From Candidatus Levyibacteriota bacterium (GTDB lineage Bacteria; Patescibacteriota; Microgenomatia; Levybacterales; UBA12049): a stretch of DNA of 64,000 nt. Made by a program: the position numbers and the translations under genes. Shown one piece after another: positions 3,588 to 40,602 of the stretch. Below the pieces are notes generated by a model that saw only the letters and a program-made list of their open reading frames with translations, did not search any database and was not told where the DNA came from. The stretch is from positions 15,700 through 79,699 of the forward strand of contig JACOXU010000001.1 in assembly GCA_016182185.1 (NCBI GenBank), written 5' to 3'. Each line of letters opens with the position of its first letter. Positions within the stretch are counted from its first letter, which is position 1.

Positions 3588-5921
3588 ATGGTAGATTACA
3601 GGAACAGCAGGCTATCAAGACGTCGCCTCAGACATAGTTCCTCAAAAATAATTCTCTACAGCAAACTTGCCAAATATGCCTTCTTCGGACTAATAGGATT
3701 TTTAATACTAATGACCGGACTTTTTCTTTGGTATGGACGTGATCTTCCAACGCCCGGAAAATTAATTGAGCCGGATTTATCACAATCTACCAGAATTTAT
3801 GATCGAAACGGTATACTCCTCTACTCTGTTTATCAAACTCAAAACAGAACCTATATTAAACTGTCTGAAATTCCAAAGATACTTCAGCAGGCAACTATTG
3901 CAATTGAAGATAAAAACTTTTATAAAAATCAGGGATTCTCAATTACCGGATATGCAAGAGCAATTAGAAATATCCTGCTTTTCAGGGGTCTTTCAGGAGG
4001 TTCTACGATTACACAGCAGTTGGTAAAGAATGTCTTATTAACTTCTGAGCGCACAATTCCCCGTAAGATAAAAGAGCTAATGCTCTCAATTCAGGTTGAC
4101 AAAAAATATACAAAGGATGAAATTCTGGAGATGTACTTAAATGATGTTCCTTATGGCGGTGCAAATATCGGAGTTGAGGCAGCTGCAGAATCATATTTCG
4201 GAAAAAAAGTTAAAGATTTAAATTTGGCAGAAAGCGCATTTCTGGCAGGTCTTCCTCAGGCGCCCAGTATATATTCTCCCTTTTCCGGAAAAAAATTTTA
4301 TGTCAAGCGAACAGAGGATGTACTTAAACAAATGGTCAACGAGGGAATGATAAGCAATAAACAAAAAGAACAGGCGCTTTCCGAGATAAAGTCAAAAACT
4401 TTTTCAGAAAAAGATACCGCAATAAAAGCTCCACACTTTGTCATGTATGTCAAACAGCTCTTAGCAGAAAAATTCGGTGAAAACTCTATTACCTCAGGTG
4501 GTCTTCAAGTCACAACGACACTCGACTATGAAATTCAAAAAAAGGCAGAGGAGATAATCAAGGACGAGATTAATAAGCTTAAGGGTTTCAATGTTGGAAA
4601 TGGAGCCGCAATCGTGTCAGATCCTAAGACGGGTGAAATTTTGGCAATGGTTGGAAGCAAAGACTATTTCGATACAGACAACGATGGTAATTTTAATGCA
4701 TCGTTATCAAACCGTCAGCCCGGGTCCTCTCTTAAGCCCATCATGTACGCGACAGCATTTGAAAAGGGATACACTGCGTCTACGCTTGTAATAGATGTGA
4801 AGACAGAGCTTCCTTCAAATGATCCAAAGAATCCTATCTATACACCGGTAAATTATGATGGAAAGTATAGAGGTCCCATTCAACTCCGTTTTGCGCTTGG
4901 AAATTCAGTAAATGTGCCTGCGGTCAAAATGCTTGCAAGAGTTGGAATAAAGGACGTTATGCAGCAGGCTTACAATATGGGGATAGAAAACTGGCAGCCA
5001 ACCAAGGAAAACCTGGCTAAAGTCGGGTTCTCGCTTGTCTTAGGAGGTCGGGAGACATCACTTCTTTCAGAAATTACGGCATATGGAGTTTTTGCAACAG
5101 CAGGAATAAGGCAAGATCCTGTCGCCATTTTAAAAGTCGTAGATAGTAAAAATAGTAAATTATTTGAGCATAAGAAAACTGATGGTCAGAAAGTCTTGTC
5201 TTCTGAGGCATCTTTTCTTATCTCTCATATCTTGCTTGACAATAATTCAAGAAGCATGGAATTTGGGACCAATTCGTGGCTTGTTATACCAGGCAGGACA
5301 GTTTCTGTAAAAACTGGTACAACTGATGATAAGAGAGATAACTGGACAATTGGATATACGCCGTCATATGTGGTTGGAGTTTGGGTGGGAAATAATGATA
5401 ATAGTCCAATGAACAAAGCAATTGCCTCAGGGGTCACGGGAGCATCCCCAATTTGGAACAGGATTATGAGGGAGGTTCTAAAAGGAAAAAGCGATGAAGC
5501 ATTTAACAAGCCGGATAATGTAGTTGCTATACAAGTAGATTCGTTCGGAGGAGGATTACCTGTAGGCGGTCAACCAACTCGTTCAGAATATTTTATAAAG
5601 GGAACTGAGCCTACGGGCCCTGGTCAGATTTATCAGAAGCTAAAACTTTCTAAACACCAATCTGGTAAACTCGCCAGTGAGTGGGAGATAAGTCACGGAG
5701 AGTACGATACAAAAGATTACATCGTATTTAAAGAAGAAGATCCTGCTTCAGCAGATGGAAAGAATCGTTGGCAGGAGGGAATTGATGCCTGGCTCAGGGA
5801 AAAATATTCTGCAGCTGATTGGCAATACTATCCGCCCAGAGAAACATCAGACTACAAGGGATCAGATGAATCAAACGAACCAACCCCCACATCTACTTTG
5901 ACTATTTCCCCAACACCCTAG
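3588..5921 (+). CDS. class A penicillin-binding protein (bifunctional transglycosylase/transpeptidase, PBP1A-like)
   Basis: N-terminal TM helix, the GT51 motif IAIEDKNFYKNQG, and transpeptidase motifs SSLKP (SxxK), SVN (SxN) and KTGTT. The C-terminal tail is low-complexity and Pro/Thr-rich. Confidence 0.9.
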   Translation: MVDYRNSRLSRRRLRHSSSKIILYSKLAKYAFFGLIGFLILMTGLFLWYGRDLPTPGKLIEPDLSQSTRIYDRNGILLYSVYQTQNRTYIKLSEIPKILQQATIAIEDKNFYKNQGFSITGYARAIRNILLFRGLSGGSTITQQLVKNVLLTSERTIPRKIKELMLSIQVDKKYTKDEILEMYLNDVPYGGANIGVEAAAESYFGKKVKDLNLAESAFLAGLPQAPSIYSPFSGKKFYVKRTEDVLKQMVNEGMISNKQKEQALSEIKSKTFSEKDTAIKAPHFVMYVKQLLAEKFGENSITSGGLQVTTTLDYEIQKKAEEIIKDEINKLKGFNVGNGAAIVSDPKTGEILAMVGSKDYFDTDNDGNFNASLSNRQPGSSLKPIMYATAFEKGYTASTLVIDVKTELPSNDPKNPIYTPVNYDGKYRGPIQLRFALGNSVNVPAVKMLARVGIKDVMQQAYNMGIENWQPTKENLAKVGFSLVLGGRETSLLSEITAYGVFATAGIRQDPVAILKVVDSKNSKLFEHKKTDGQKVLSSEASFLISHILLDNNSRSMEFGTNSWLVIPGRTVSVKTGTTDDKRDNWTIGYTPSYVVGVWVGNNDNSPMNKAIASGVTGASPIWNRIMREVLKGKSDEAFNKPDNVVAIQVDSFGGGLPVGGQPTRSEYFIKGTEPTGPGQIYQKLKLSKHQSGKLASEWEISHGEYDTKDYIVFKEEDPASADGKNRWQEGIDAWLREKYSAADWQYYPPRETSDYKGSDESNEPTPTSTLTISPTP

Positions 5922-7804
5922 ACAACTTTTGCCTTGAATTTTTGTTGTACCGCCTCAATAATTTTTTCTCTTATCTTTCCTACCTCTTCATTGGTTAAAT
6001 TTCTTTCTCTGTGTTGATAGATAATATGAAAAGTTCTGTTATTTTTAAACATATCTTTTAATTCTACGCTTTCTATAATTGTACTTTGTTTTTTTATTTC
6101 ATTGATAATTTCGCCGGTTTTTGCAATTCCGGAAATTTCAATGGTGATGTCTTCAACAACAGGGGGATACTTAGGAATAGGTTTGTATACTCTTTCAAGT
6201 TTAGTCTTTTCTAAGATATCTGAAAAATTCAATTCAAATATTACACCATCGCGGGTGACGTCAATGAATCTACTTGGATCTTCATCAATATTTAATTCTT
6301 CAAAAATTCTTTCAAGGAGCCCCTTTATTTCGTAGAAGTTTTTTTCGTTTGAAATTCCTGAAAGCATATATAATTCATTGGCTTCATCAAGAGTCGGACC
6401 AAGATAAACCTTGCCCATTTCAAACAGATTTATCTTTTCAAAATTAGGTTTATTTTGAACAAAAGCTTTTAATAAGTTTATTTTAAGAGTCGGTCTTAGA
6501 TACTCAAACTCCCGACTTACAGGATTATCGACTCTTAATACCTTATCAGAGTTTATGTTAAGATTTACCAAATCCTTTTCACTTATGAGGCTATAGGAGT
6601 AAATCTCAGAAAATCCGTCTGCCTTTAATAAATTTTTTACTTTCTCATCAATCAAATAATTCTTAAAATATAGAATTGTTTTGGTAGGTATTTCTCCTTC
6701 GGGAATAGTTTTGGGGAAATTATTGTATCCATATAATCTTGCGACTTCTTCAATAAGATCTTCTTCAATCTTAAGATCGTTTCTGTAAGTAGGAATTACA
6801 ACTTTGATCAGATCTTTTCCAGTGTCTTTTGGAGAAAGATTTAATTTCTTCAAAATATTCAAAACTATTTCTTTTTTGATTGTGATTCCAAGAATCTTAT
6901 TTAGCCTCTCGTAGCTTAAGTTTACTACCCAGGGGGCAAAGTCCTCCTTTTTGATGTCAAAAATACTGCTTGAAATCTCCCCGCCTGCTATCTCAAGTAT
7001 TAAATCAAGGCATCTTTCGAGTGCTTCAGGAGTTCCCCCTGCATTTACTCCTCTTTCAAAAATACTTGATGCCTCAGAACGAAGCCCCAGTGATTGTGAA
7101 GCCCTTCTTATAAGAACTGGGACCTCCACGGGTACTCTTATGAAGATTGTTTTTGTATTTTCAAAAGTTCCACTGTTGAATCCCCCTTTTATACCGCAAA
7201 GATCAATAATATTTTCGCGATCTGAGATTATAACCGCTCCTTTGGGTAAATAATAGGAAAGACCATCAACGCTTTTGAATTTTTCTCCGCCTTTTGCTTG
7301 ATGGACCTTCATTACTTTTCCATTAATCCTTTCATAGTCAAATGCATGAATCGGATTACCGAGCTCAAACATCACATAATTTGTTATGTCAACGATATTA
7401 TTGATCGGACGTTGACCGATTTTTATTAATTTTTCGGAAAGCCATTTGGGAGAATCTTTAACTTTTATTCCATCAACTATGATTCCTGTGAATCTTGGAT
7501 TTATAGTACTTTCTGTTTGTATATTAAGAGGTAAAGATTTTTTGGGCTTTATATTCTTTATATCAATTCTGGTTTCAGGATATTTAATCTGTCTTGCTTC
7601 AATTGCCGCAATTTCCCGGGCAATTCCAATAATTGAGAGAAGATCGGGTCGGTTTGGGGTTATCTCAAATTCAAAAAATATATCATTATCAATTTTGGTT
7701 ATTTTTTCAGTTCCTAGGCCTACCTCGGTAAGTTTCTCACCAAGTTTCTCAGGTGAGAGCGTGATATCAACGTATTCTTTAAGCCATGATAAAGGTGCTA
7801 CCAT
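5918..7804 (-). CDS. pheT: phenylalanyl-tRNA synthetase beta subunit, short form lacking the N-terminal tRNA-binding domain
   Basis: B3/B4 and B5 domain-like sequence plus a C-terminal FDX-ACB-like region. It lies immediately downstream of pheS. At 628 aa it is shorter than the ~800 aa typical bacterial PheT. Confidence 0.85.
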   Translation of the reverse strand: MVAPLSWLKEYVDITLSPEKLGEKLTEVGLGTEKITKIDNDIFFEFEITPNRPDLLSIIGIAREIAAIEARQIKYPETRIDIKNIKPKKSLPLNIQTESTINPRFTGIIVDGIKVKDSPKWLSEKLIKIGQRPINNIVDITNYVMFELGNPIHAFDYERINGKVMKVHQAKGGEKFKSVDGLSYYLPKGAVIISDRENIIDLCGIKGGFNSGTFENTKTIFIRVPVEVPVLIRRASQSLGLRSEASSIFERGVNAGGTPEALERCLDLILEIAGGEISSSIFDIKKEDFAPWVVNLSYERLNKILGITIKKEIVLNILKKLNLSPKDTGKDLIKVVIPTYRNDLKIEEDLIEEVARLYGYNNFPKTIPEGEIPTKTILYFKNYLIDEKVKNLLKADGFSEIYSYSLISEKDLVNLNINSDKVLRVDNPVSREFEYLRPTLKINLLKAFVQNKPNFEKINLFEMGKVYLGPTLDEANELYMLSGISNEKNFYEIKGLLERIFEELNIDEDPSRFIDVTRDGVIFELNFSDILEKTKLERVYKPIPKYPPVVEDITIEISGIAKTGEIINEIKKQSTIIESVELKDMFKNNRTFHIIYQHRERNLTNEEVGKIREKIIEAVQQKFKAKVV

Positions 7805-9770: not shown

Positions 9771-10314
9771 CTTTTTTCCTTTCCGGAGAAAGAATCCCGA
9801 TAAGCTGTCGACCCTCGAAATGTCTCTCTTTTTCTATTTTTGAAATAGAAGAAAGTGCTTCAGTAACTTTGTCTATTATATTTTCTCCAAATTCTGGGTG
9901 TTGAATCTGCCTCCCCTTAAATTTTACAACCAGTTTTACTTTATTGTTTTCCTGTAAGAATTCTTTAGCTTTTTTGATAATAACTTGGAGGTCATGATTA
10001 TCCATGAAGGGTCCAAGTCTTAATTCTTTAGTCCCAGAACTTTTCGCTTTTTTCTTTTCTTCCTTTTTCTTTTTTTCTTCCTGATATAAAAATTTATTAA
10101 AGTCAATTAGTTTTGCAACGGGTGGCTGAGCATTGGGCGCAATTTCTACCAGATCAAGATCAAGCTCTCTTGCTTTTTTGAGGGCTTCAAATTTAGATAA
10201 AATACCTATTTGTTTGCCATCAGATCCTAACACTCTAAGCGTATGGGCAAAGATACGTTCGTTTATCCGATAAAATCTTTTACTATCGTGTTTAGTTTTA
10301 AATCTTTTTATCAA
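9736..10314 (-). CDS. infC: translation initiation factor IF-3
   Basis: RINERIFAHTLRVLGSDGKQIGILS...LDLVEIAPNAQPPVAKLIDFNKFLY shows IF3 N- and C-domain motifs. It overlaps the thrS end and the rpmI start. Confidence 0.85.
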   Translation of the reverse strand: MIKRFKTKHDSKRFYRINERIFAHTLRVLGSDGKQIGILSKFEALKKARELDLDLVEIAPNAQPPVAKLIDFNKFLYQEEKKKKEEKKKAKSSGTKELRLGPFMDNHDLQVIIKKAKEFLQENNKVKLVVKFKGRQIQHPEFGENIIDKVTEALSSISKIEKERHFEGRQLIGILSPERKKDVKEKNQEINK

Positions 10315-11515
10315 TTTCTTCTTGTAATCTTTGTAAAAATTGCGAAATTTTTACCTGTCCCAAATCCCTACCTTCCCTTGTTCTAATTGTTATAACAGGA
10401 AATTTTAGGCCACTTTCAATTTCTTTGTCCCCTATTATACCCATATATGGGGTTTTTTGTAAAGTAGCATCGCGGATTTTGGCAGGCAAGGTCTCTGATC
10501 TGTCATCTATCTTAGTTCTTATACCCTTATCAGACATCTCTTTATAAATTTTTATTGCGTTTTGGCTATGTCTTTCAGAAACTGGCAGTATTACAAACTG
10601 AATAGGAGAAAGCCACAAGGGAAATACTCCCTGATAGTGTTCAGTCAAAATGCCTATAAAGCGTTCGATGGATCCAAGTATTGCGCGATGTACTATTACC
10701 GGGCGTTTTGGTTTACCGTCTTTATCAATGTATTCAAGCTTCATCTTTTCTGGTATTTGAAAATCCAACTGAATAGTTGCAAGCTGCCAATCCCGATTTT
10801 GTGAATCTTTAATGTGTATATCTATTTTCGGTCCATAAAAAGCACCATCTTTTTCTTTGATGCCATATTTAACTCTTGCATCTTTCAGCGCTTTTTCTAG
10901 ATCTTTTTCTGCTTGTCTCCAAAGTTTTACATCCCCCATGGCTTTATCTGGCCTGGTTGATAGATAAAATTCTGATCTAAAACCTAGAATTTTATAAAAG
11001 TCTGTAACCAGTAATAAAAGATCATGAATTTCTTTTTGAATTTGATCAGGGCGAACATAGAGATGTGCATCATCGATGACGAATTGACGTACTCGGAAAA
11101 GCCCTCCCAGCACGCCGGATAATTCATTTCTGTTCAATATACCAAAATCCATAAATCTGATAGGTAAGTCCTGATAACTTCTTGTTTTACTGCCATAAAT
11201 CAATGAAGCTCCCGGGCAATTCATGGGTTTAAGAGAATAAGTTTCCTTTTCAATATCGAAATTAAACATATTTTCATTGTAGTAATCCCAATGTCCGGAT
11301 TTTTTAAAGAGTGAACTCTTGACCATTACCGGAGTTGAAATTTCTTCATATCCTTGTGAAATAAGTGTTTGCCGGAGGAATTCCTGGAGAGTTTTATAAA
11401 TCACCCAGCCTTTTGGGTGCCAAAAAACTGCGCCAGGCGCATATTCATGAAAAGAAAATAAATCAAGCTCTTGACCTATTTGTCGATGATCTTTAAGGAT
11501 TGCGGATTTTTTCAT
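10298..11515 (-). CDS. thrS: threonyl-tRNA synthetase, catalytic core plus anticodon-binding domain only (no N-terminal TGS/editing domains)
   Basis: Starts directly at the class II core (DHRQIGQELDLF...FWHPKGW) and has a C-terminal anticodon-binding domain. At 405 aa it is well short of the ~640 aa of canonical ThrRS. Confidence 0.85.
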   Translation of the reverse strand: MKKSAILKDHRQIGQELDLFSFHEYAPGAVFWHPKGWVIYKTLQEFLRQTLISQGYEEISTPVMVKSSLFKKSGHWDYYNENMFNFDIEKETYSLKPMNCPGASLIYGSKTRSYQDLPIRFMDFGILNRNELSGVLGGLFRVRQFVIDDAHLYVRPDQIQKEIHDLLLLVTDFYKILGFRSEFYLSTRPDKAMGDVKLWRQAEKDLEKALKDARVKYGIKEKDGAFYGPKIDIHIKDSQNRDWQLATIQLDFQIPEKMKLEYIDKDGKPKRPVIVHRAILGSIERFIGILTEHYQGVFPLWLSPIQFVILPVSERHSQNAIKIYKEMSDKGIRTKIDDRSETLPAKIRDATLQKTPYMGIIGDKEIESGLKFPVITIRTREGRDLGQVKISQFLQRLQEEIDKKI

Positions 11516-13026: not shown

Positions 13027-13854
13027 TCATAAATTCTTGAGGAAATCAAGAGTTTTTTGCTGTCTTATAATACTTGCCAGTAGATATCGGTTTCCCTCTA
13101 AATTTTTCCTTTCCGTGTCGTCTTTGGCCTTTCCTATAGTATCTGTGATTTCTTTATCTTCAACAGTTATTTTTTCTTCCTCTGCAATTTTTTGCAAGGC
13201 AAATTCAAGCTGAATATCAGTCTCTGCTTTTTTGGCAAGTTCAGCCTGCATGCTTTCTACAGTTTTATTGGTTGATGAGAGATACTGATCAAGCGTAAGT
13301 CCCAGTTTTTTTATTTCATCAAGTGTTTGAGCAAGAAGTCTTTCTACTTCCTGATCAATAATAATCTTAGGTATGGATATTGTAGTATTTTTGAGAAGTT
13401 CGGTAATTATTTCATCAAGGCTAACAGGCTTTTCTTCTTTACCGGGGATTACAATTTTACTTTTGGCTGTAATTTTTTTGACATTTTCTTTATATTTCCC
13501 AAGCTCAACGACCGGTGTTTCGCAGGTCTGGGCGGTAAATTTCCAATCTTTTCCTTCCTCCAGGCTTTGAACATGAATTCTAGGATTCATGATTGGTCTT
13601 ATGTTGTGTTTATTTATAGCTTCAGAGTATGCCTGGGGAAGTAATTTCTTTAATGCATCTTCTCTTAGCTTGTCCTTATTAACTTTTTCTTTTACGATTT
13701 TTTCTGGGGCTTTTCCTTTTCTGAAGCCTGAAACACTTGCTTCTTTGGTAATCTCCTCAACAAGTTCATCAAGAGTTTTTTTGACAAGAGTATTAGGTAT
13801 TGTAATTGTCAGAGTTATGGTTCCGTCGAGACTTTTTTCAATTATTGAATCCAT
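13027..13854 (-). CDS. tig: trigger factor, short form
   Basis: N-terminal ribosome-binding domain with GFRKGKAP (TF signature GFRxGxxP). At 275 aa versus the typical ~430 aa it is probably missing the PPIase domain. Confidence 0.7.
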   Translation of the reverse strand: MDSIIEKSLDGTITLTITIPNTLVKKTLDELVEEITKEASVSGFRKGKAPEKIVKEKVNKDKLREDALKKLLPQAYSEAINKHNIRPIMNPRIHVQSLEEGKDWKFTAQTCETPVVELGKYKENVKKITAKSKIVIPGKEEKPVSLDEIITELLKNTTISIPKIIIDQEVERLLAQTLDEIKKLGLTLDQYLSSTNKTVESMQAELAKKAETDIQLEFALQKIAEEEKITVEDKEITDTIGKAKDDTERKNLEGNRYLLASIIRQQKTLDFLKNL

Positions 13855-13864
13855 AATTTAAGTG

Positions 13865-13946
13865 TGCGGATGAGAGGACTCGGACCTCCAAGGGTTGCCC
13901 CACATGGCTCTAAACCATGCGCGTCTACCAATTCCGCCACATCCGC
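13865..13946 (-). tRNA. tRNA-Leu (anticodon TAG)
   Basis: Reverse complement GCGGATGTGGCGGAATTGGTAGACGCGCATGGTTTAGAGCCATG...; long variable arm; anticodon loop TTTAGAG. Confidence 0.85.
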
Positions 13947-14684: not shown

Positions 14685-15260
14685 TTATTCAAGGTGGTCC
14701 ATGAAGAGATTTACCGAATTTGCCCACGCTCCTGTGTTTGAGGGAGTGTATTTGGCCATAATTTCTTCAGGTGTATTTAATCCTTTACTTTTGTATTCGA
14801 TAAATAAAGTTTTTGCCACAGTGTCTATAGCCTCCTCGTAACTTGTGAATTTGGTCATTTTTTTACCATAAATTCCGAATCCCCAGCAGTTATATGAGCC
14901 TTTTGGAGCTTTTTTGCACAAATTTGATTCTTGCATGGCTATTGCAGGCAAAAGCCTGAAATCAAGTTCATATTTCTCAGAGACAGACACGAAATATTCA
15001 GCATAAGGTTCAAGGGAAGAATTATGACGGTTGAAAAATGTGCGTAGATTTTCAATTCTTTTATCAAGCGTTACTATTTCATCGTTTAAAGTGCTTTCCT
15101 GCGATGGTAGGGCCGCAAATGCGACAGGTTGGGAAATATTAGAGAAAGAATGACGGTTGACATCTGCTCCGTAAGCAAGATAAGAAAGGTAAACAAGGCT
15201 CAAGAGTAAAGTCAGAGGAGTAAGGAGGAGGAAGGTTAGCAACTTGACTATCTTTCCCAT
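14685..15260 (-). CDS. secreted peptidoglycan hydrolase-like protein, paralog B
   Basis: N-terminal TM/signal segment; AIAMQESNL (SLT-like QES motif); NCWGFGIYG block. Clearly paralogous to 13969-14517. Confidence 0.55.
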   Translation of the reverse strand: MGKIVKLLTFLLLTPLTLLLSLVYLSYLAYGADVNRHSFSNISQPVAFAALPSQESTLNDEIVTLDKRIENLRTFFNRHNSSLEPYAEYFVSVSEKYELDFRLLPAIAMQESNLCKKAPKGSYNCWGFGIYGKKMTKFTSYEEAIDTVAKTLFIEYKSKGLNTPEEIMAKYTPSNTGAWANSVNLFMDHLE

Positions 15261-15321
15261 GAATACTAATCATGGTTACATATTTGAGTAAAGATGTCAA
15301 GCTTTTAAGCCTGAAGTTTTG

Positions 15322-15393
15322 AGCGGGAGACGGGTATCGCACCCGCGACCTTCTCGTTGGCAACGAGACGTTCTACTGCTGAACTACTCCCGC
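15322..15393 (-). tRNA. tRNA-Gly (anticodon GCC), non-canonical D/T loops
   Basis: Reverse complement GCGGGAGTAGTTCAGCAGTAGAACGTCTCGTTGCCAACGAGAAGGTCGCGGGTGCGATACCCGTCTCCCGCT. The D-loop AGCAGTA has no GG. The T-loop TGCGATA reads UGC where TΨC is expected. Confidence 0.8.
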
Positions 15394-15410
15394 GCGTAAA
15401 TAATTTACTG

Positions 15411-15483
15411 TGCCGAGGGTCAGAGTCGAACTGACATAGCCTGTTCTTCAGACAGGTGCCGTGACCACCTTGGCTACCTCGGC
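15411..15483 (-). tRNA. tRNA-Phe (anticodon GAA)
   Basis: Reverse complement GCCGAGGTAGCCAAGGTGGTCACGGCACCTGTCTGAAGAACAGG...TTCGACT...CCTCGGCA. Confidence 0.9.
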
Positions 15484-15487
15484 TTTG

Positions 15488-15561
15488 TGGACTCCAGAGG
15501 GTTCGAACCTCTGACCTCCTCGGTGTAAACGAGGCGCTCTGACCAGCTGAGCTAGGAGTCC
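15488..15561 (-). tRNA. tRNA-Val (anticodon TAC)
   Basis: Reverse complement GGACTCCTAGCTCAGCTGGTCAGAGCGCCTCGTTTACACCGAGGAGGTCAGAGGTTCGAACCCTCTGGAGTCCA. Confidence 0.9.
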
Positions 15562-15600
15562 AAATAGCTTGCCCTGAGTGAGCAAAGCGAATCGAATGGG

Positions 15601-15687
15601 TGCCGAGGACAGGACTTGAACCTGCACGCCTTTTTTAAGGGCACAAGAACCTCAATCTTGCGTGTATACCAATTTCACCACCTCGGC
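15601..15687 (-). tRNA. tRNA-Leu (anticodon GAG)
   Basis: Reverse complement GCCGAGGTGGTGAAATTGGTATACACGCAAGATTGAGGTTCTTG plus a long variable arm, then GCAGGTTCAAGTCCTGTCCTCGGCA. Confidence 0.85.
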
Positions 15688-15724
15688 TTTTTGGATTATG
15701 ATTATATCAAAATCCTTAAGAATG

Positions 15725-15808
15725 TGCTCTGGGAGAGACTCGAACTCTCACGTTCTTGCGAACACTAGCTTCTGAAGCTAGCCTGTCTGCCAATTTCAGC
15801 ACCAGAGC
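15725..15808 (-). tRNA. tRNA-Leu (anticodon CAG)
   Basis: Reverse complement GCTCTGGTGCTGAAATTGGCAGACAGGCTAGCTTCAGAAGCTAG plus a long variable arm, then GAGAGTTCGAGTCTCTCCCAGAGCA. Confidence 0.85.
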
Positions 15809-15954
15809 GTGCTTGTCCTGAGATTGTCGAAGGGTCTACTATTCCGCCGCTTCGGCAAATCCGCAATTTTTGCCTCAGATTATACTCGAATTGTACCAGA
15901 ATATTTTAGACTTGACAATTCTAGGTAAATATAAGATTATAAGCATGCATCAAA

Positions 15955-21895: not shown

Positions 21896-24283
21896 CTATT
21901 TTTTACTCCTTACATTGTGTCCACCGAACTCATGACGTAAAGCCGAGACAACCTGACCGGTATATGAGGGTTTTCCTTGAGATTTTTTTCTAAACTCGAC
22001 TGCCCCCTCAATAATTTCTACTGGTACGTCCATTTCTCTTGCTGTTTCAACAGTCCATTTCCCTTCGCCGCTTTGAGATACTTTTCCAGAACAACATTCT
22101 TGGGTATTTAGATCATCGCCAAACTTGGCATACGCATCTTTAAGCCATCCGACAAGACGAGAAGTAATAACCGAACCGTGATTGTAAAGATCGGCAACGG
22201 AATACAAATCAAGTGAAAAAGGAGACTTTTTAAGAATCTCAAATCCTTCACCAATTGACTGCATCATACCGTACTCGATCCCGTTATGTACCATTTTTAC
22301 GAAATGTCCAGCGCTGGCATTGCCCATATAGCCGTATCCATCTTTAATCGATAAATCTCGGAATAAAGGCTCATGTCTTTCATAAAGTTCTTTTTTACCT
22401 CCAACCATAATACAAGCACCATTGAGCGCACCATCCGGACCACCTGAAACTCCAACGTCCAAGAAATTAATTCCACTTTTGTCTAGGTCTTTTGAGCGAC
22501 GGATAGAGTCTTTATAAGGTGAATTACCACCGTCTATAATAGTGTCTCCTTTTTCAAGAAGAGGTACAAGCTCGTTTAAAACTTCGTCAACTGCCTGGTA
22601 AGATGCCATTAGCCAAATTGTGCGGGGGTTTTTAAGTTTTTCAACCAGTTCTTCCAGAGAATGGGTGCCAAGAATCCCTTCAGACTCATAAACCTTGGTT
22701 ACCTCGTAAGTCCTGTTATAACCGTACACCTTCCATCCTTTTGAAACTAATTGTTTCGCCAGATTTGCCCCCATTTTCCCAAGACCTATAATCCCTATTT
22801 CGTTTATTTTTACCTTTCCTTTTTTGATCATATTTCCCCTCGCGCTTTTATCTAATTCAGGGGCTGGAGTTGTGTCCGGTTTGTATTTCAAAAGCGGAGC
22901 AAGATTTTCCTTCCATGCCTCAATGACAGGGTCTGCAAATTTCCACTGAGCTTCAACTTCATTTTGAGAAATAAAAAGCGATTGATCAGCATGTATAGCG
23001 TGATAAAGAACCTTTGCGTATTCTTCAACATATTGTACTTTGGTTTGCTTTTTGTATAAAAAGAATGAAAAAGTTCTTTCCTCAAGCACTCGTTCAAACC
23101 CCGGTTTTTTAGTCCAGAAATGAATTACTATTTCATCCCTTGGTTCAAGGCGAAAAACTATACGATTTGGTGTATGCTTGCGGATTTCACACAAGTGGCA
23201 CACTTTTGGATGTTTTAATGTTAAGACAATTTCTTTTCGCACCTCTCCCATACGCTTACCTGCTGAAAGTGTTATCGATACACCTTTCCATTTTGGATGA
23301 AGAAGTTCAGTTTTAAGCGCAAAATATGTTTCCGTATTGGAGTTAGGTGTAACGTCTTGAATCTCTTTGTAGCCTTTATATTGCGCTCGGAATGTGTTCT
23401 TTGTTAAAATTTCCCTTCTCCACGGCAAAAGAGCCTCAAGGATTTTTGCTCTGGTTTTTCTGATGCCTGTTTCTTCTTCGTTTGATGGATATTCCATAGT
23501 GAGCGCAGCAAGCATTGAGAGAAGATGATTTTGTCCCACATCCCGCAAAGCTCCAACCTGATCATAAAAGCTTCCTCTATCTTCAACGCCTATTTTTTCA
23601 TGAAGCTGCAGATCAATGCTGTCGATGGTTGAATTATCCCAAATGTTCTCAAAGAGATTATTGGAAAATCGAAAATTTTCTATTCCCTGAACTATTTCTT
23701 TAAAAAGGTAGTGATCAATGCGGTAAATTTGCTCTTCCTTAAAATATGAAGAGAGAAGTGTCTGAAGCTTTCTTGCCGTTGCAAGATTGGTACCAAACGG
23801 TTTTTCAATAAGAATTCTGCTCCAGCCGAGTTTTCCTCCACAAGGGATGTTTAATTTCACTGCTGCAAGGTTTTTGAAAATCAAATCATAATTTATTGGC
23901 GGAACTGCCAGATAAAAAAGCTTATTAGCACAAATTCCCCATAAATTTTCTGTTTCGCTAATTTTGTTGACTAGAGCCTGATATGCTTTTTCATCTTCAA
24001 AAGTGCCATTCTGATAAGAAAAGGTCACAAAAAATTTCGAGAATTTCTCGCTTGTTACGTTTTCCCCGCTGCGTTTTTTAACCGAATCGAAAACATAGTC
24101 TTTAAATTCTTGAGCAGAAAAATCTCTTCTTGAAAAGCCTATAACGGAAATGTTATCGGGCAAAAGGTTCTGCTCGAAGAGGTGCCAGAGAGAAGGAATA
24201 ATTTTTTTTGCCGCCAGGTCTCCCGTTACGCCAAATATTACAAGAATTGTCGGTATTTCTTTTGATATTTCCTTTGATTCCAT
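21896..24283 (-). CDS. fused glucose-6-phosphate 1-dehydrogenase / 6-phosphogluconate dehydrogenase (decarboxylating)
   Basis: N-terminal half: G6PD motifs GVTGDLAAKKIIPSL (dinucleotide-binding) and RIDHYLFKE (G6PD signature RIDHYLGKE). C-terminal ~300 aa: 6PGDH motifs IGIIGLGKMGANLA, GGNSPYKDSIRR, GVSGGPDGALNG, GHFVKMVHNGIEYG, GEGKWT. Single uninterrupted ORF of 808 aa; the start is probably the Met at MESKEIS. Confidence 0.85.
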   Translation of the reverse strand: MESKEISKEIPTILVIFGVTGDLAAKKIIPSLWHLFEQNLLPDNISVIGFSRRDFSAQEFKDYVFDSVKKRSGENVTSEKFSKFFVTFSYQNGTFEDEKAYQALVNKISETENLWGICANKLFYLAVPPINYDLIFKNLAAVKLNIPCGGKLGWSRILIEKPFGTNLATARKLQTLLSSYFKEEQIYRIDHYLFKEIVQGIENFRFSNNLFENIWDNSTIDSIDLQLHEKIGVEDRGSFYDQVGALRDVGQNHLLSMLAALTMEYPSNEEETGIRKTRAKILEALLPWRREILTKNTFRAQYKGYKEIQDVTPNSNTETYFALKTELLHPKWKGVSITLSAGKRMGEVRKEIVLTLKHPKVCHLCEIRKHTPNRIVFRLEPRDEIVIHFWTKKPGFERVLEERTFSFFLYKKQTKVQYVEEYAKVLYHAIHADQSLFISQNEVEAQWKFADPVIEAWKENLAPLLKYKPDTTPAPELDKSARGNMIKKGKVKINEIGIIGLGKMGANLAKQLVSKGWKVYGYNRTYEVTKVYESEGILGTHSLEELVEKLKNPRTIWLMASYQAVDEVLNELVPLLEKGDTIIDGGNSPYKDSIRRSKDLDKSGINFLDVGVSGGPDGALNGACIMVGGKKELYERHEPLFRDLSIKDGYGYMGNASAGHFVKMVHNGIEYGMMQSIGEGFEILKKSPFSLDLYSVADLYNHGSVITSRLVGWLKDAYAKFGDDLNTQECCSGKVSQSGEGKWTVETAREMDVPVEIIEGAVEFRKKSQGKPSYTGQVVSALRHEFGGHNVRSKK

Positions 24284-24288
24284 AATTA

Positions 24289-25638
24289 TTATTCGATTGC
24301 AAAAAATGCCCTTTGTAACCATTCTGGTAAAGCTGGGTGAATATAAACAGAATTTGTAATTGCTTTTACAGTTCCATTTGCCTTCATGGCAACAATTACT
24401 TCATGAATTAGGGTAGATGCTTCATGACCTACGATATGAGCTCCAAGAATTTTTTCTCCATTCTTATCAGTTAGAACTTTTGCGAGTCCATTTTCTTGTA
24501 ATGCTCCACCCATACCGGTATCTTTGAGCTCTGCTCTCCCTACTTTATAAGCTGTACCTTCTTTTTTAAGCTCTTGCTCTGTTTTACCAACTCCACCAAC
24601 CTGAGGAGATGAAAAAACCGCATGACCTATTGCAAAGGGATTAAATGGTACTTTTTTATCAGTAAAAGCGTTTCTAATTGAAAATCCAACTTGGTCATTG
24701 GCGGTATGTCGAAACGGCAAGATACCAAGTATATCCCCAAACGCCCAGATACCATCAACATTTGTCTCAAGGTACTCATTAACCTTAATATACCCATTGT
24801 CATTCACCTCAACTCCTGTTGTCTTAACATCTAAGATGTCGGTATTGGGAACTCTGCCAGTAACAACCAGCAATTGATCACTCTCAAGTTTTCTTTCACT
24901 GTCTTTTAAGGTAATAATGAAATTGCCGTTTTGGTAGGAAACCGACTCTGCCTGTGTATTAAAGAGAATTTCATATTTTTTAGAAAACTTCTTGGTGAAC
25001 CATTGGGCTATTTCTTCATCTTCATCACTCAACATGAGATTTCCCCTGACCAAAATTGTAATTTTAGTTCCTAAAGCTCCATAAAAATGTGCAAGCTCTG
25101 CTGCTATATAACCGCCGCCTATAATTATTAAATGTTTTGGTTGTTTCTCAAGCCTTAATGCTTTTGTACTATCTAGAAATGGTGTATTTTTCAAACCCGG
25201 AATTGGGGGTATGGAAGGCCTGGTGCCTCCGACAATAAATACTTTATCAGCCTCAATCTGACCATCTCCTACCTGCATTTGTTTTGGACCAATAAACTTA
25301 CCGCGCATTTTATAGAGGATAGGGTTTCCGTTTTCTCTGACAGACTTTTCAATACCGGCCGAATCAGTATCTACCACCTCAGAGACTCGTTTTACGATCG
25401 ATGCAAAATCTATGCTTTCTATCTTGCTTTTAATCCCAAATTTTCCGCTATTTTTAATAGCTTCAGCAACATCCGATGAGTGGATCAACATCTTTGAGGG
25501 TATGCAACCTCGATTTAGACACGTTCCACCCAGCGGGCCTTCTTCGACTATTGCAACAGACATTTCTTTTTCTGCAGCAAATGATGCTACTTCGAGTCCG
25601 GCTCCTGATCCCACAACTAAAACATCAAACTTTTTCAT
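24289..25638 (-). CDS. class I flavoprotein pyridine nucleotide-disulfide oxidoreductase (glutathione reductase / Lpd-like)
   Basis: FAD-binding GSGAGL; redox-active GGTCLNRGCIPSK; a second Rossmann GGGYIAAEL with a VRG element; a C-terminal dimerisation domain with HPALPE. Confidence 0.85.
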   Translation of the reverse strand: MKKFDVLVVGSGAGLEVASFAAEKEMSVAIVEEGPLGGTCLNRGCIPSKMLIHSSDVAEAIKNSGKFGIKSKIESIDFASIVKRVSEVVDTDSAGIEKSVRENGNPILYKMRGKFIGPKQMQVGDGQIEADKVFIVGGTRPSIPPIPGLKNTPFLDSTKALRLEKQPKHLIIIGGGYIAAELAHFYGALGTKITILVRGNLMLSDEDEEIAQWFTKKFSKKYEILFNTQAESVSYQNGNFIITLKDSERKLESDQLLVVTGRVPNTDILDVKTTGVEVNDNGYIKVNEYLETNVDGIWAFGDILGILPFRHTANDQVGFSIRNAFTDKKVPFNPFAIGHAVFSSPQVGGVGKTEQELKKEGTAYKVGRAELKDTGMGGALQENGLAKVLTDKNGEKILGAHIVGHEASTLIHEVIVAMKANGTVKAITNSVYIHPALPEWLQRAFFAIE

Positions 25639-35089: not shown

Positions 35090-36115
35090 TTGACTCAAAC
35101 TCCATACTTTTCAAGAAGTCTTCTGGAAGTTTTAAAATTTGGTAAAATTAAATTTGTGAGGAAATTTGCGATTTCGACTTTAATAATCGGATGCCTGACT
35201 CTAATTTTAGTTGCTTTTATATTAATTTTTTCACAAAAAACTCGGCAAATTCTTAGGTCCCCCCTACCCGATTTTCTTACATCTTTTAGAAATTCACAGG
35301 TTTCAACCTTGACCATATGGAAGCCAAATCTTGAGAATCAGGTTAGAAATAGCATTAAGAAACCCGTAGCTAGCGCAAAATCGGCTCTTGTCTATGATCT
35401 TACAACCGATACTGTTACTTTTGCCAAAGATCCCAAAGAAAAAGTTCCGATGGCATCATTGACTAAAATTATGACCGCGATAGTAGCGCTGGAGAACAAA
35501 AGAAAGGATGGTAAATATATTGTCAGAAAAGAAGATTTAGTCGGTGAAGACTCGATGGGACTGACAGAAGGCGAGATATTAACTCTCGAGGAATTGCTAT
35601 ATGGGTTAATACTTCATTCCGCCAATGATGCCGCAGAAACTATTGCAAATAATTACATTGGGGGAAGGGAGAGATTTATTGAAGCGATGAATGATAAGGC
35701 GAAATCTTTAGGGCTTATGAGTACAAATTTTACAAACCCAAGCGGACTTGAGGGAGATGGAGCCCAATATACCTCTGCTTACGATCTTCTGGTGATGACA
35801 CGTTACGCAGTTCTTAATTTCCCTACATTTACAAAAATAACATCGACATACGCTTATACTCTGCCCTCCTCAAAAAACCATAAAGAATTTTATCTTGAAA
35901 ATGAAACAAATCTTATCACAAGTTACCCCGGAGTCAAAGGTATTAAGACTGGATACACCCCAGAGGCCGGATTTTGTCTTGTTACCTATCTTGAGTACGA
36001 AGGATACCAGATTATAGGAATACTATTAAATAGCGATAATCGAAGAGAAGAAATGAAGCAGCTCTTGGATTATTCTCTTAAATCTCTGGGAGTAGAGCCC
36101 CCTAAGCATAGTTGA
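35090..36115 (+). CDS. D-alanyl-D-alanine carboxypeptidase (peptidase S11, PBP5/6-like)
   Basis: N-terminal TM; SLTKIMT (SxxK), HSAND (SxN), GIKTGYT (KTG). Confidence 0.8.
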   Translation: MTQTPYFSRSLLEVLKFGKIKFVRKFAISTLIIGCLTLILVAFILIFSQKTRQILRSPLPDFLTSFRNSQVSTLTIWKPNLENQVRNSIKKPVASAKSALVYDLTTDTVTFAKDPKEKVPMASLTKIMTAIVALENKRKDGKYIVRKEDLVGEDSMGLTEGEILTLEELLYGLILHSANDAAETIANNYIGGRERFIEAMNDKAKSLGLMSTNFTNPSGLEGDGAQYTSAYDLLVMTRYAVLNFPTFTKITSTYAYTLPSSKNHKEFYLENETNLITSYPGVKGIKTGYTPEAGFCLVTYLEYEGYQIIGILLNSDNRREEMKQLLDYSLKSLGVEPPKHS

Positions 36116-36346: not shown

Positions 36347-37081
36347 ATGAAGGAAACTTTAAAAGAAACTCCTCAAGAGAAAAAACATTCTTTTTTAGTA
36401 AGAAATGCATTGGTGGCATTGGGAATTGCCTTTGTGACTGACCGGGTTCTTCGAGAGGGCTTAAATCCTGAAGGGCGAAAATTGGTAAGGCAAATTATCG
36501 TAAAAGCATGGACAGGTTCTAAAGTTTCAGTCGCCCGGGAAGTGGCAAAGCTTAATCAGGAATCAAAACTCTCCATACATATTGATGGACAAAAGCATAT
36601 ACCAGCTTCTGGCCCTACAATACTTATCACAAATCATACTCACGGAGGTCCCCTTAATAATCTCGGTCAATACTTTGAGATGGTAAAAGAAGGATATGAT
36701 GCAAGACGTCAGGTAGTAGACGACTATGAGAGAGAACCTTTTATTATTGTTCAAAGAGGGTTAGGTAAAGTAAAACCAGTAAGAATTTTGTCCGGTCTTT
36801 TTTATGATATTGTAGGAGGAGCTTTTAACTGCGAGATCGTAGAAATTCCCAAATATAATGAAAAGGGAGATATCATAAATAGTCAAAATTTGAGACCGGC
36901 TGCTATTCGTAGGGTAGTTGATGGTGGAGCATCTTTATGGCTTCCCCAAGGTAGGGAAAGAGATCCCGAAGATTTTGAATTTCCTGAAAAAGCAACAGGA
37001 TTCTTAAGGAAAATAAATTATGAAGATCGTTTCGTGCAATTAGTTCCGGTCAGGTCGATACCGGATAAGGTGGGGATTTAA
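36347..37081 (+). CDS. hypothetical protein (244 aa)
   Basis: Long ORF with no convincing catalytic motif. Confidence 0.5.
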   Translation: MKETLKETPQEKKHSFLVRNALVALGIAFVTDRVLREGLNPEGRKLVRQIIVKAWTGSKVSVAREVAKLNQESKLSIHIDGQKHIPASGPTILITNHTHGGPLNNLGQYFEMVKEGYDARRQVVDDYEREPFIIVQRGLGKVKPVRILSGLFYDIVGGAFNCEIVEIPKYNEKGDIINSQNLRPAAIRRVVDGGASLWLPQGRERDPEDFEFPEKATGFLRKINYEDRFVQLVPVRSIPDKVGI

Positions 37082-37225: not shown

Positions 37226-37299
37226 GCGGGTGTAGTTCAATGGCAGAACACAACTTTTCCAAAGTTGATACGAGGGTTCGATTCCCTTCACCCGCTCCA
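37226..37299 (+). tRNA. tRNA-Trp (anticodon CCA)
   Basis: GCGGGTGTAGTTCAATGGCAGAACACAACTTTTCCAAAGTTGATACGAGGGTTCGATTCCCTTCACCCGCTCCA. A TATAAT box lies 10 nt upstream (37211-37216), with TTGTTT at the -35 position. Confidence 0.9.
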
Positions 37300-39129: not shown

Positions 39130-40602
39130 TTATACCCCACATCCTGCTCCACCTTTTGTTTGGGGGATAAGATTTGGTATCTTGGCAATTTCTGTCTGTA
39201 CATTCTTGCCCCAGCCGCTACCTGTTGAGTAATCAGTACCCAACGCCACTTTTGGATCAACTTTGTCCCACTCTATGTTTTTAACAACCTTAAAATACAG
39301 GGCTGTTTGAATATAATTTTGTGGGAACCAAGAGGAATTGAAGGCGAGAGCCTCTTTGTAAAGTTCATCCTCGGAGAGTCCCTGTGATGCGCCAAGTTGC
39401 AGAAGTCCTAATAACGCTGATCCATGATTGCAGTCCTGAAAGAAAGTAGAGTTATTGCAACAGGGACGATAGGTGTTTTTGGCAATTTGAGTGACTAAAG
39501 CTTCTTGCTCTGGTGTCAATTCAACTATTCTGAATTTATTGAAATACGCTCCGCCATTTTCTTCCTTTCCTATATTCCAACCCCCAGTTGAAGCAAAGTT
39601 AAAAAGAGATTTTCCATTAACAGGACTATCTTTATTTGTTGACATATAGTTTGATAGTCCTAATGCCCAAAGAAGGTTAACGTAAGTGTTAGCGTTTTCT
39701 CTGGTGAGAAGAATAGGCCTATATGAAGATTGACTTAATATATCTTTCAGCTCGGGAGGCAATCCTCCGCGTTCTTTATAAATTTCTTCAAATTTACCCT
39801 GGTCAATAACGCCATTTTGTACCAATTCTACGACGCTATCCCCTAAGAAAATTTTGCTTTGAAAACCTTGTGCTGGCAAAACTTTAGCTACAACCTCGTC
39901 ATAAACTTTGTTTCCTGTTGAAGAAATGTTAGAGGTATTTAGTTTATTGTCGTTTGAGTTAAGAAGTGCTGTCTTATTAAAGAAGCTGAAAATTATTGGA
40001 TCAGTCTTAAGCATATTCCAGCCAATAAGTATCAAAACAGCAACCAATGCTAAAGAGGCTATAAGATAAGGTTTATCTTTTGCTCGATATGAAGTAGGGC
40101 GGGGAATCGGGCAAGTTTCATCGCCGCAACTTAAAGATTTTAACTCTCTTGTTGTTAACCAGACAGGAAGCGCCATTAAGGCAAAAGAAAGTGATTTTAG
40201 TTCTAAACCTTGCAGGGGGAAAGCTGCCAGCCCTCCGGCAATGCCAATAGCGGATAAAAGAACAGAACCGCAGACTGGACAAGCAGAGGCCGCCACCCCT
40301 ACTAATGCTCCTAAACTGCTTCCGCCTTGAACTTTGAGTCTGGGCGGTCCAAATTTCCTCCAGCGATAAACAAATAATGAGGCGTTAACGCCAAAAAGGA
40401 CAATAGTACCAAAAGTAAGAAGGATATATGACCATAAGTACACAGGCTGACTTTTGGTGTTGTTGATAAGATTATAAATACTTGAATTAAGGCTTAAGCT
40501 CCAATAGAAGATAAGCAGTAGAAGTAGAGAAGCCACCAGCCCGATTGAACCGTAAAATAAAAAGGTCAATAATTTTTTCTTAAATCTGTTAATTCTTCTC
40601 AT
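39130..40602 (-). CDS. Cys-containing polytopic membrane protein with a large extracytoplasmic C-terminal domain (candidate metal-ion transporter)
   Basis: About 5 TM helices in the first 190 aa. One carries ACPVCG; a loop carries SCGDETCP. The ~300-aa hydrophilic C-terminal domain has a PCCNNSTFFQDCNHG motif and ends GGAGCGV. It lies in an operon with the ArsR and MerA-like genes. Confidence 0.55.
   Translation of the reverse strand: MRRINRFKKKLLTFLFYGSIGLVASLLLLLIFYWSLSLNSSIYNLINNTKSQPVYLWSYILLTFGTIVLFGVNASLFVYRWRKFGPPRLKVQGGSSLGALVGVAASACPVCGSVLLSAIGIAGGLAAFPLQGLELKSLSFALMALPVWLTTRELKSLSCGDETCPIPRPTSYRAKDKPYLIASLALVAVLILIGWNMLKTDPIIFSFFNKTALLNSNDNKLNTSNISSTGNKVYDEVVAKVLPAQGFQSKIFLGDSVVELVQNGVIDQGKFEEIYKERGGLPPELKDILSQSSYRPILLTRENANTYVNLLWALGLSNYMSTNKDSPVNGKSLFNFASTGGWNIGKEENGGAYFNKFRIVELTPEQEALVTQIAKNTYRPCCNNSTFFQDCNHGSALLGLLQLGASQGLSEDELYKEALAFNSSWFPQNYIQTALYFKVVKNIEWDKVDPKVALGTDYSTGSGWGKNVQTEIAKIPNLIPQTKGGAGCGV

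Follow-up and report, generated by a model that had tools for sequence, protein, structure and literature searches.

A tRNA-Gly(GCC) gene with two exchanged elbow residues

The window analysed here, that is to say the whole stretch of 64,000 nucleotides (nt) from contig JACOXU010000001.1 of a Candidatus Levyibacteriota bacterium, carries a gene for the glycine transfer RNA (tRNA) with anticodon GCC, tRNA-Gly(GCC), that lacks the usual G18:U(pseudouridine)55 contact of the elbow and has A18 and G55 in its place. Sequence comparison indicates that the gene very probably encodes an ordinary, translation-competent housekeeping tRNA-Gly(GCC), in which A18:G55 would form the elbow contact, in a bacterium of the Patescibacteria (the candidate phyla radiation, CPR) that is most similar to Levybacteria. 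In the canonical elbow, residue 18 intercalates between residues 57 and 58 and bonds to pseudouridine 55 while G19 pairs with C56, where the exposed face of the G19:C56 pair provides a stacking platform for RNase P, ribosomal protein L5, the L1 stalk and T-boxes (PMC4810234, PMC7912444).

ARAGORN calls the gene at 15321-15393 on the minus strand, a strand not given in an earlier reading of the letters of the window (the sequence-only reading). It is the last of five co-oriented tRNA genes, in the order Leu(CAG), Leu(GAG), Val(UAC), Phe(GAA) and Gly(GCC), with spacers of 3-37 nt between them (Table 1). The Rfam RF00005 covariance model aligns to 15322-15393 across positions 1-71 of 71 with 64.2 bits (E=1.4e-13, gathering score 29), which is the second-best Rfam score among the five adjacent tRNAs of the local cluster. 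From the 5' end, the RNA consists of the acceptor strand GCGGGAG, the linker UA, the D-arm GUUC-AGCAGUA-GAAC, a single G, the anticodon arm UCUCG-UUGCCAA-CGAGA, the variable loop AGGUC, the T-arm GCGGG-UGCGAUA-CCCGU, the acceptor strand CUCCCGC and a final U. The minimum-free-energy fold has a cloverleaf layout at -31.2 kcal/mol (z=-3.4), with two extra predicted pairs in the anticodon hairpin and two in the T hairpin.

The bacterial glycine identity set, as given in Table 1 of PMC9976931, is present in full (U73, G1-C72, C2-G71, G3-C70, C35, C36), and the anticodon loop UUGCCAA also occurs in the canonical Gly(GCC) copies of Proteus in locus L038. The T-stem GCGGG/CCCGU forms the pairs G49-U65, C50-G64 and G51-C63, the first and last of which are strong determinants for EF-Tu. 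All other core and elbow nucleotides are canonical, including U8-A14, G15-C48, G19-C56, U54-A58, G53-C61 and a purine at 57.

The assignment of both altered positions depends on the register of the two loops. For the T-loop, the end-to-end covariance-model alignment confirms the G at position 55 that the sequence-only reading had proposed: G55, at 15340, replaces U/pseudouridine 55, and U54, C56, R57 and A58 are canonical. A mis-registered hand fold is ruled out as a source of the change, where the Rfam alignment has a posterior probability near 1, returns the T-loop UGCGAUA and leaves no TTCGA register to be recovered. For the D-loop, close relatives align position by position and differ by an exchange of GG for AG at the same place, as shown by AGUGGUA and AGCAGUA for Gly, AAGUGGUAA and AAGCAGCAA for Cys, and AGUUGGUCA and AGGCAGUCA for Phe. 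Because the relatives differ only there, the loop is read as A14 G15 C16 A18 G19 U20 A21, which places A18 (in place of G18) at 15377 and a retained G19, still able to pair with C56, at 15376. The earlier claim that G18-G19 is missing thus stands in part: the loop has no GG, yet G19 is present and G18 alone is changed. On these alignments, only the inner contact appears to be exchanged, from G18:U55 to A18:G55, with the outer G19:C56 contact intact.

Positions 18 and 55 change together in Gly(GCC)

Relatives were collected in two reciprocal scans, each of which left one of the two loops free. The first searched 185,579 species genomes for a UGCGA T-loop downstream of a Gly(GCC) anticodon loop, with the D-loop left free, and yielded at least 119 loci. 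In 27 of the 119 the pattern had matched by chance at a site without a tRNA, and these were discarded; the number fits the roughly 35 chance matches expected from the information content of the pattern, and a doubtful ARAGORN call (L114) was also disregarded. The remaining loci contain at least 91 tRNA-Gly(GCC) genes with G55, where 87 of the 91 listed have A18-G19 in a D-loop of the form AG-N-AG-N-A or equivalent (88 of 92 when the window gene is counted). The four listed genes that combine G55 with a normal GG D-loop belong to Proteus faecis, Entomohabitans, Halomonas and a Gemmatimonadaceae metagenome-assembled genome (MAG). Proteus faecis (L038), Entomohabitans teleogrylli (L090) and Halomonas sp. 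(L056) each have one such G55 copy within tandem arrays of otherwise canonical UUCGA Gly(GCC) genes, and these copies could be uncompensated singletons, possibly mildly defective, or sequencing errors.

The second scan covered metagenome contigs and required an A18-G19 D-arm and a GCC loop, with the T-loop left free. It produced at least 120 loci and at least 117 Gly(GCC) genes, whose T-loops are UGCGA (108), UGCAA (7), CGCGC (1) and UUCGA (1). G55 is therefore present in 116 of the 117 listed genes selected for A18, and the A18/G55 combination is found in at least 115 metagenome loci. Taken together, the two scans list at least about 200 Gly(GCC) genes of this design, most of them from Patescibacteria. 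The CGCGC gene, in L169, has the loop CGCGCAU (C54...C58) and departs from the invariant U54-A58.

A18/G55 Gly(GCC) genes occur in at least 86 genome loci, of which 61 carry explicit Patescibacteria/CPR names. These include Levy-, Roizman-, Ames-, Beckwith-, Collier- and Daviesbacteria, Microgenomates, Paceibacterota, Parcubacteria, Jorgensen-, Portnoy-, Andersen-, Kerfeld-, Gribaldo- and Nealsonbacteria, and Saccharibacteria. A further 8 of the 86 are labelled simply as unclassified "bacterium", and 12, from third-party assemblies that bear the label Gammaproteobacteria, Pseudomonadales or Bdellovibrionales, hold a CPR-type Gly(GCC) gene (L003, L014, L044, L052, L054, L055, L057, L063, L072, L093, L102, L104). 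Those of the third-party loci that were checked, such as L003, have CPR-type neighbouring tRNAs, and L052 aligns to protein-coding flanks of the window; the taxonomic labels of these 12 MAGs are probably wrong. The suggestion of the sequence-only reading that the tRNA might be a lineage-specific structural variant is thereby upheld at the scale of Patescibacteria, not of a single genome.

The other 5 of the 86 loci have different labels and different tRNA bodies, namely Treponema, Spirochaetaceae, Opitutaceae and two Rickettsiales-labelled MAGs. Loci labelled as lying outside Patescibacteria that carry A18/G55 Gly(GCC) genes are L074 (Treponema), L110 (Spirochaetaceae, two copies), L009 (Opitutaceae), L060 and L095 (Rickettsiales-labelled) and L021, L059 and L097 (UBP2/unclassified). 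Their clearly different tRNA bodies suggest independent origins of the double change. L095 also carries an A18/G55 tRNA-Gln(CUG). Neighbouring Gly(UCC) genes in related loci are mostly canonical, with four having A18 and G55.

The same coupling recurs in other tRNA families

Coupling between positions 18 and 55 was next assessed in 706 distinct tRNAs other than Gly(GCC), drawn from all fetched loci and the window. The assessment used a contingency table and nearest-relative analysis; formal pair counting would score A:G as unpaired. G55 is present in 84 of the 706, spread over more than 20 isoacceptor families that include Phe, Cys, Asn, His, Gln, Pro, Ala, Arg, Glu, Ile, Thr, Met, Asp, Val and Gly(UCC). 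An AG-only D-loop accompanies G55 in 72 of these 84 tRNAs, and a further 3 (Cys, GAGGAGUUA), which were misclassified, read AG when positions 18-19 are aligned. Among the 622 tRNAs with U55, C55 or A55, an AG-only D-loop never occurs. The association between G55 and the AG-only D-loop gives a Fisher p=2e-86, from a test that treats related sequences as independent. The co-variation of the two loops, which the sequence-only reading had put forward from this one gene, is strongly supported by the table and by the reciprocal scans.

The nearest-relative analysis addresses relatedness directly. At 85% identity, G55 tRNA-Phe falls into at least 6 sequence clusters and G55 tRNA-Cys into at least 5, and the nearest U55 relatives of the G55 Phe and Cys tRNAs are up to 92% identical and have GG where the G55 tRNAs have AG. 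The double switch has thus occurred repeatedly, and relatedness does not explain the pattern. Intermediates between G18/U55 and A18/G55 are almost never seen. C55 is found in 31 distinct tRNAs (Phe, Val, Gln, Ile, Leu, Ala), all of which have GG and one of which is the tRNA-Leu(UAG) of the window; position 55 seems to be generally relaxed in this group. The comparisons point to a rule by which G18 accompanies a pyrimidine at 55, and A18 accompanies G55.

Two further sets of elbow variants were observed. Three tRNA-Arg genes in L160 and the tRNA-Arg(UCU) genes of L121 and L206 have G55 with a residue other than C at 56, in the T-loops UGUGAGU, UGAGAGU, UGGGAGU and UGGAAAU, and their D-loops contain neither GG nor a clear AG (for example AGAUUACA, AAAUAUACA and AGCACAUA). 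These may represent a second covariation, at 19:56. The tRNA-Phe genes of L077 and L156 have the T-loop AGCGUUA (A54...U58, an apparent swap of U54-A58) with the D-loop AGUAGUA.

The A18/G55 Gly(GCC) family is conserved

To describe conservation within the family, 105 distinct A18/G55 Gly(GCC) sequences were selected for an AG-N-AG-N-A D-loop and a UGC-R-A T-loop. Standard pairs occupy all 2205 stem positions (21 pairs in 105 sequences), with compensatory double changes at 14 of the 21 stem pairs. Among the columns left free by the search patterns, G1-C72, C2-G71 and U73 are each present in 105 of 105 sequences and G3-C70 in 103, and in the T-stem G51-C63 is present in 104 and G49-U65 in 95, where the other 10 have A-U. 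Variation within the D-loop is confined to positions 16 and 20, and position 57 is G in 100 sequences and A in 5; the search patterns themselves set the anticodon loop and some of the D- and T-arms, whose invariance is no independent evidence. The stem pairing, the compensatory changes and the pattern-free columns show the family to be under strong purifying selection.

The window gene could also be a decaying or non-functional copy, mutated at two normally invariant positions, and the uncompensated G55 singletons with UGCGA and a GG D-loop in the L038, L090 and L056 arrays may be copies of that kind. Against decay, the two changes of the window gene are strictly coupled, it has a high Rfam score and perfect stems, and it lies within a tRNA operon conserved across many candidate phyla. 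With the all-standard pairing in 105 sequences and the compensation at 14 of 21 pairs, the conservation data effectively refute decay, which we regard as extremely improbable. Perfect stems together with conserved identity and EF-Tu columns rule out a pseudogene and fit a tRNA that has to satisfy both GlyRS and EF-Tu.

Comparison with staphylococcal cell-wall tRNAs

Loss of U55 is also known from tRNAs that do not serve translation. The non-proteinogenic tRNA-Gly species of Staphylococcus aureus have a UCC anticodon and lack G49-U65, G51-C63, G18-G19 and U55 (PMC12256121, PMC4574755, PMC13443448, PMC9976931). Absence of the G49-U65 and G51-C63 pairs defines the staphylococcal non-proteinogenic species, whose EF-Tu binding is weak (PMC12256121). 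The window tRNA could by analogy be a non-proteinogenic tRNA-Gly that donates glycine for peptidoglycan cross-bridges through Fem-type transferases and escapes EF-Tu and the ribosome by means of its altered elbow. Such a role would agree with the absence of U55 in the S. aureus and S. epidermidis non-proteinogenic tRNAs (PMC13443448) and with the capacity of the organism to make peptidoglycan, as indicated by a PBP1A and a D-Ala-D-Ala carboxypeptidase in the window. It would also leave the Gly codons readable, where a canonical tRNA-Gly(UCC) elsewhere in the window could in principle read all four by superwobble. The presence of this second gene corrects the statement in the sequence-only reading that tRNA-Gly(GCC) is the only Gly tRNA of the window.

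The structural comparison does not follow the analogy further. The S. aureus and S. epidermidis tRNA-Gly(UCC) species NP1-NP3, glycine donors for FemXAB pentaglycine synthesis, share with the window tRNA the absence of U55 and of a GG dinucleotide in the D-loop. Their D-loops, in contrast, are U-rich and lack both G18 and G19, whereas the window tRNA keeps G19; they lack G49-U65 and G51-C63 and have the anticodon UCC, whereas the window tRNA has both pairs, the anticodon GCC and an ordinary UUGCCAA loop. NP1-NP3 also occur alongside proteinogenic isoacceptors and Fem enzymes (PMC12256121, PMC13443448, PMC4574755). No FemAB, MprF or L/F-transferase domain was detected among the 49 window open reading frames (ORFs) scanned with NCBIfam or Pfam, and no second Gly(GCC) gene was found in the window or in any Patescibacteria-type related locus (about 1.5 Mb). 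Since GGU and GGC make up 491 of the 1234 Gly codons in window ORFs (39.8%), a decoder with a GCC anticodon is expected. Recurrence of A18/G55 in more than 20 other isoacceptor families further argues that the change is specific neither to glycine nor to the cell wall. A Staphylococcus-like non-proteinogenic tRNA is thus rejected on G49-U65, G51-C63, GCC, G19 and UUGCCAA, with the loss of U55 alone in common; the specialised role contemplated in the sequence-only reading is not supported, and a cell-wall function is very unlikely.

Comparison with a canonical elongator tRNA-Gly(GCC) of the enterobacterial glyV type (L038, L090) gives a different picture. The two share the same cloverleaf, identity set, UUGCCAA loop and 5-nt variable loop, as well as G49-U65/C50-G64/G51-C63, U8, A14, G15:C48, G19:C56, U54-A58 and G53-C61. 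The window tRNA differs in having A18 for G18, G55 for U55 and no encoded CCA.

Some points weigh against a housekeeping role, in addition to the shared ancestry of sequences in the contingency test and the columns that the search patterns predetermined. Elsewhere in the source genome, beyond the window, there may be a second, canonical tRNA-Gly(GCC). One gene of the second scan, in L167, is an A18/U55 Gly(GCC), and Patescibacteria lineages with a canonical G18/U55 Gly(GCC) may exist; the scan counts are lower bounds and not a fraction of lineages.

A proposed G-clamp model of the elbow

The T-loop of the window tRNA has a structural precedent outside tRNA. T-loops are described as a UA_handle combined with a UNR or GNR turn; most commonly, position 2 is a "G-clamp" to which the intercalating nucleotide is bonded, and tRNA-Phe stands out by its "U-clamp instead of G-clamp" (PMC2615604). 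The T-loops of flavin mononucleotide (FMN) and cobalamin riboswitches follow the consensus YGNRA, and their intercalating base is almost always an adenosine, bound through two hydrogen bonds to the sugar edge of G at position 2 (bioRxiv 10.1101/2022.12.26.521914). UGCGA has the features of a G-clamp pentaloop, with U at position 1, G at position 2, a purine at position 4 and A at position 5.

We propose that tRNA-Gly(GCC) would be transcribed as the last gene of the five-tRNA operon, charged by GlyRS, delivered by EF-Tu and used to read GGC and GGU. Its UGCGA would act as a general U-G-N-R-A T-loop, composed of a U:A handle and a GNR turn, where G55 makes the turn and serves as the G-clamp. 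A18 would intercalate between G57 and A58 and hydrogen-bond to G55, an arrangement indirectly supported by the covariation of A18 with G55 in more than 20 families. In this way the L-shape and the outer G19:C56 face would be kept through an alternative design in which only the inner contact is rebuilt. The tRNA would be unable to carry pseudouridine 55 (the product of TruB) or Gm18, because U55 has become G55 and G18 has become A18. The gene, its fold and sequence features, the covariation and the phylogenetic spread are shown here; expression, aminoacylation, EF-Tu binding and three-dimensional geometry are inferred, with charging and use on the ribosome deduced from the identity and EF-Tu determinants, the GGY codon usage and the purifying selection.

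The proposed elbow resembles the T-loops of FMN and cobalamin riboswitches and of ribosomal RNA (rRNA) in pairing a U-G-N-R-A pentaloop with an adenosine from the partner strand, where the next residue pairs with position 3. A18-G19 with G55-C56 would be the counterpart of the riboswitch and rRNA T-loop receptor, an equivalence that draws on the covariation. The difference lies in the setting: the known cases are in riboswitches and rRNA, whereas here the G-clamp design would lie within the elbow of a tRNA, for which the U-clamp/G18 form is taken to be universal. Among tRNAs, tRNA-Pyl and many metazoan mitochondrial tRNAs likewise depart from the "universal" elbow nucleotides yet work in translation. 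In those tRNAs, the elbow is reduced or rebuilt, G19:C56 is often lost and the partner machinery has co-evolved (PMC4810234). Unlike them, the window tRNA retains a full-size elbow with one internal contact exchanged.

A translating tRNA of this kind may have become fixed either by compensated drift or for a specific adaptive reason, and apparent near-fixation in Gly(GCC) against sporadic occurrence elsewhere could reflect drift or selection, for example for independence from elbow modification. Possible reasons for selection include independence from TruB, pseudouridine 55 and other elbow modifications in a streamlined genome or, alternatively, evasion of some factor, be it a toxin, a nuclease, a phage or a host enzyme, by which the canonical T-loop is recognised. 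The apparent near-fixation of A18/G55 in Gly(GCC) across the superphylum, next to its sporadic presence in other families, hints at a family-specific selective value, and the same design appears in non-CPR-labelled loci (L074, L110, L009, L060, L095 and the UBP2 locus L097). The general relaxation of position 55, with 31 C55 tRNAs, can also be counted in favour. Most tRNAs of the same genomes nevertheless keep U55, which suggests that the pseudouridine-55 machinery is probably still present, and a specific adaptive cause seems unlikely, though less so than either a cell-wall role or decay.

Genomic setting and other features of the window

The window has 36.6% G+C and is about 90% coding. The fetched loci nearest to it by nucleotide similarity are the Levybacteria MAGs L053, L061 and L100. 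ARAGORN identifies 14 tRNA genes in the 64 kb, a high density. CCA is encoded in 3 of the 14, Val(GAC), Pro(UGG) and Gly(UCC), so the other eleven need a CCA-adding enzyme. All four operon tRNAs upstream of tRNA-Gly(GCC) have canonical UUCGA/UUCAA T-loops, and in the related loci examined, among them L001, L002 and L004, the genes again stand in the order Val-Phe-Gly, usually preceded by Leu. Candidate transcription signals flank the cluster (Table 1).

ORFs of the window include RecG, PBP1A, PheS/PheT, ThrRS, TyrRS, IF3, trigger factor and a Zwf-Gnd fusion. Several of the encoded proteins are short or unusually arranged, as listed in Table 1. The short aminoacyl-tRNA synthetases, the short trigger factor and the 11 of 14 tRNAs without CCA suggest a streamlined genome. 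Directly downstream of the tRNA operon is an ORF of 191 amino acids (aa) without an NCBIfam or Pfam match, and seven further ORFs of 203-496 aa have no Pfam match.

Table 1. Coordinates of the tRNA-Gly(GCC) gene, its parts and other features of the window.
Feature	Positions	Strand	Remarks
tRNA-Gly(GCC)	15322-15393	-	72 nt including discriminator U73; CCA not encoded
Anticodon GCC	15359-15361	-	in ordinary 7-nt loop UUGCCAA (U32, U33, A37, A38)
T-loop UGCGAUA	15335-15341	-	U54 G55 C56 G57 A58 U59 A60; covariance-model alignment
D-loop AGCAGUA	15374-15380	-	A14 G15 C16 A18 G19 U20 A21; register from close relatives
tRNA-Phe(GAA)	15410-15483	-	same operon
tRNA-Val(UAC)	15487-15561	-	same operon
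tRNA-Leu(GAG)	15599-15687	-	same operon
tRNA-Leu(CAG)	15724-15808	-	same operon
Promoter-like site TTGTCA-17-TACAAT, TG-extended	15890-15918	-	upstream of tRNA cluster; consensus match only, no evidence of function
Terminator-like hairpin and T-rich tail	15297-15314	-	8 nt past the 3' end of tRNA-Gly; consensus match only
tRNA-Gly(UCC)	37226-37299	+	canonical; D-loop AAUGGCA, T-loop UUCGAUU, G49-U65, G51-C63, CCA encoded
tRNA-Leu(UAG)	13864-13946	-	T-loop UCCGAGU with C55 for U; normal GG D-loop
PBP1A	3588-5921		peptidoglycan gene
D-Ala-D-Ala carboxypeptidase	35090-36115		peptidoglycan gene
PheRS beta	5918-7804	-	628 aa; N-terminal part absent
ThrRS	10298-11515	-	405 aa; profile match from position 166, N-terminal part absent
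Trigger factor	13027-13854	-	275 aa versus 410-position profile
Glucose-6-phosphate dehydrogenase/6-phosphogluconate dehydrogenase	21896-24322	-	fused in one 808-aa ORF
191-aa ORF	14685-15260	-	no NCBIfam or Pfam match
ORF	36347-37081		no Pfam match
ORF	39130-40602		no Pfam match
ORF	40605-41216		no Pfam match
ORF	44929-45645		no Pfam match
ORF	49653-50390		no Pfam match
ORF	52311-53069		no Pfam match
ORF	58663-60153		no Pfam match

Discussion

In textbooks G18, G19, U54, pseudouridine 55 and C56 count as "invariant" in tRNA, and universal conservation is ascribed to pseudouridine 55 (PMC7912444, PMC4810234). We judge the chances to be about even that the A18:G55 "G-clamp" elbow is a previously undescribed alternative to G18:pseudouridine-55 across Patescibacteria, near-fixed in Gly(GCC) and repeatedly arisen in more than 20 families and in a few unrelated-labelled loci. 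A literature search returned no paper that connects the tRNAs of Patescibacteria/CPR with variation in the T-loop, G18 or the elbow, and none on A18/G55; subscription journals were thinly covered, and novelty is to that extent uncertain.

A co-varying replacement of this kind would cleanly prove, by comparison of sequences, both the 18:55 contact and its alternative form, and it would indicate that a tRNA is able to use the G-clamp and intercalating-A solution of riboswitch and rRNA T-loops. For annotation, the finding is a warning that G55 and a lost GG do not alone mark a non-proteinogenic or pseudo tRNA. A18/G55 Gly(GCC) could also be used as a sequence marker for Patescibacteria contigs, where several otherwise-labelled MAGs carry A18/G55, and the design may help tRNA engineering with elbows that are independent of modification. 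For the organisms themselves, the analysis predicts a class of tRNAs beyond modification by TruB and TrmH. If the G-clamp elbow is indeed such an alternative across Patescibacteria, a sizeable share of the tRNAs in a major bacterial radiation would be without pseudouridine 55 by design.

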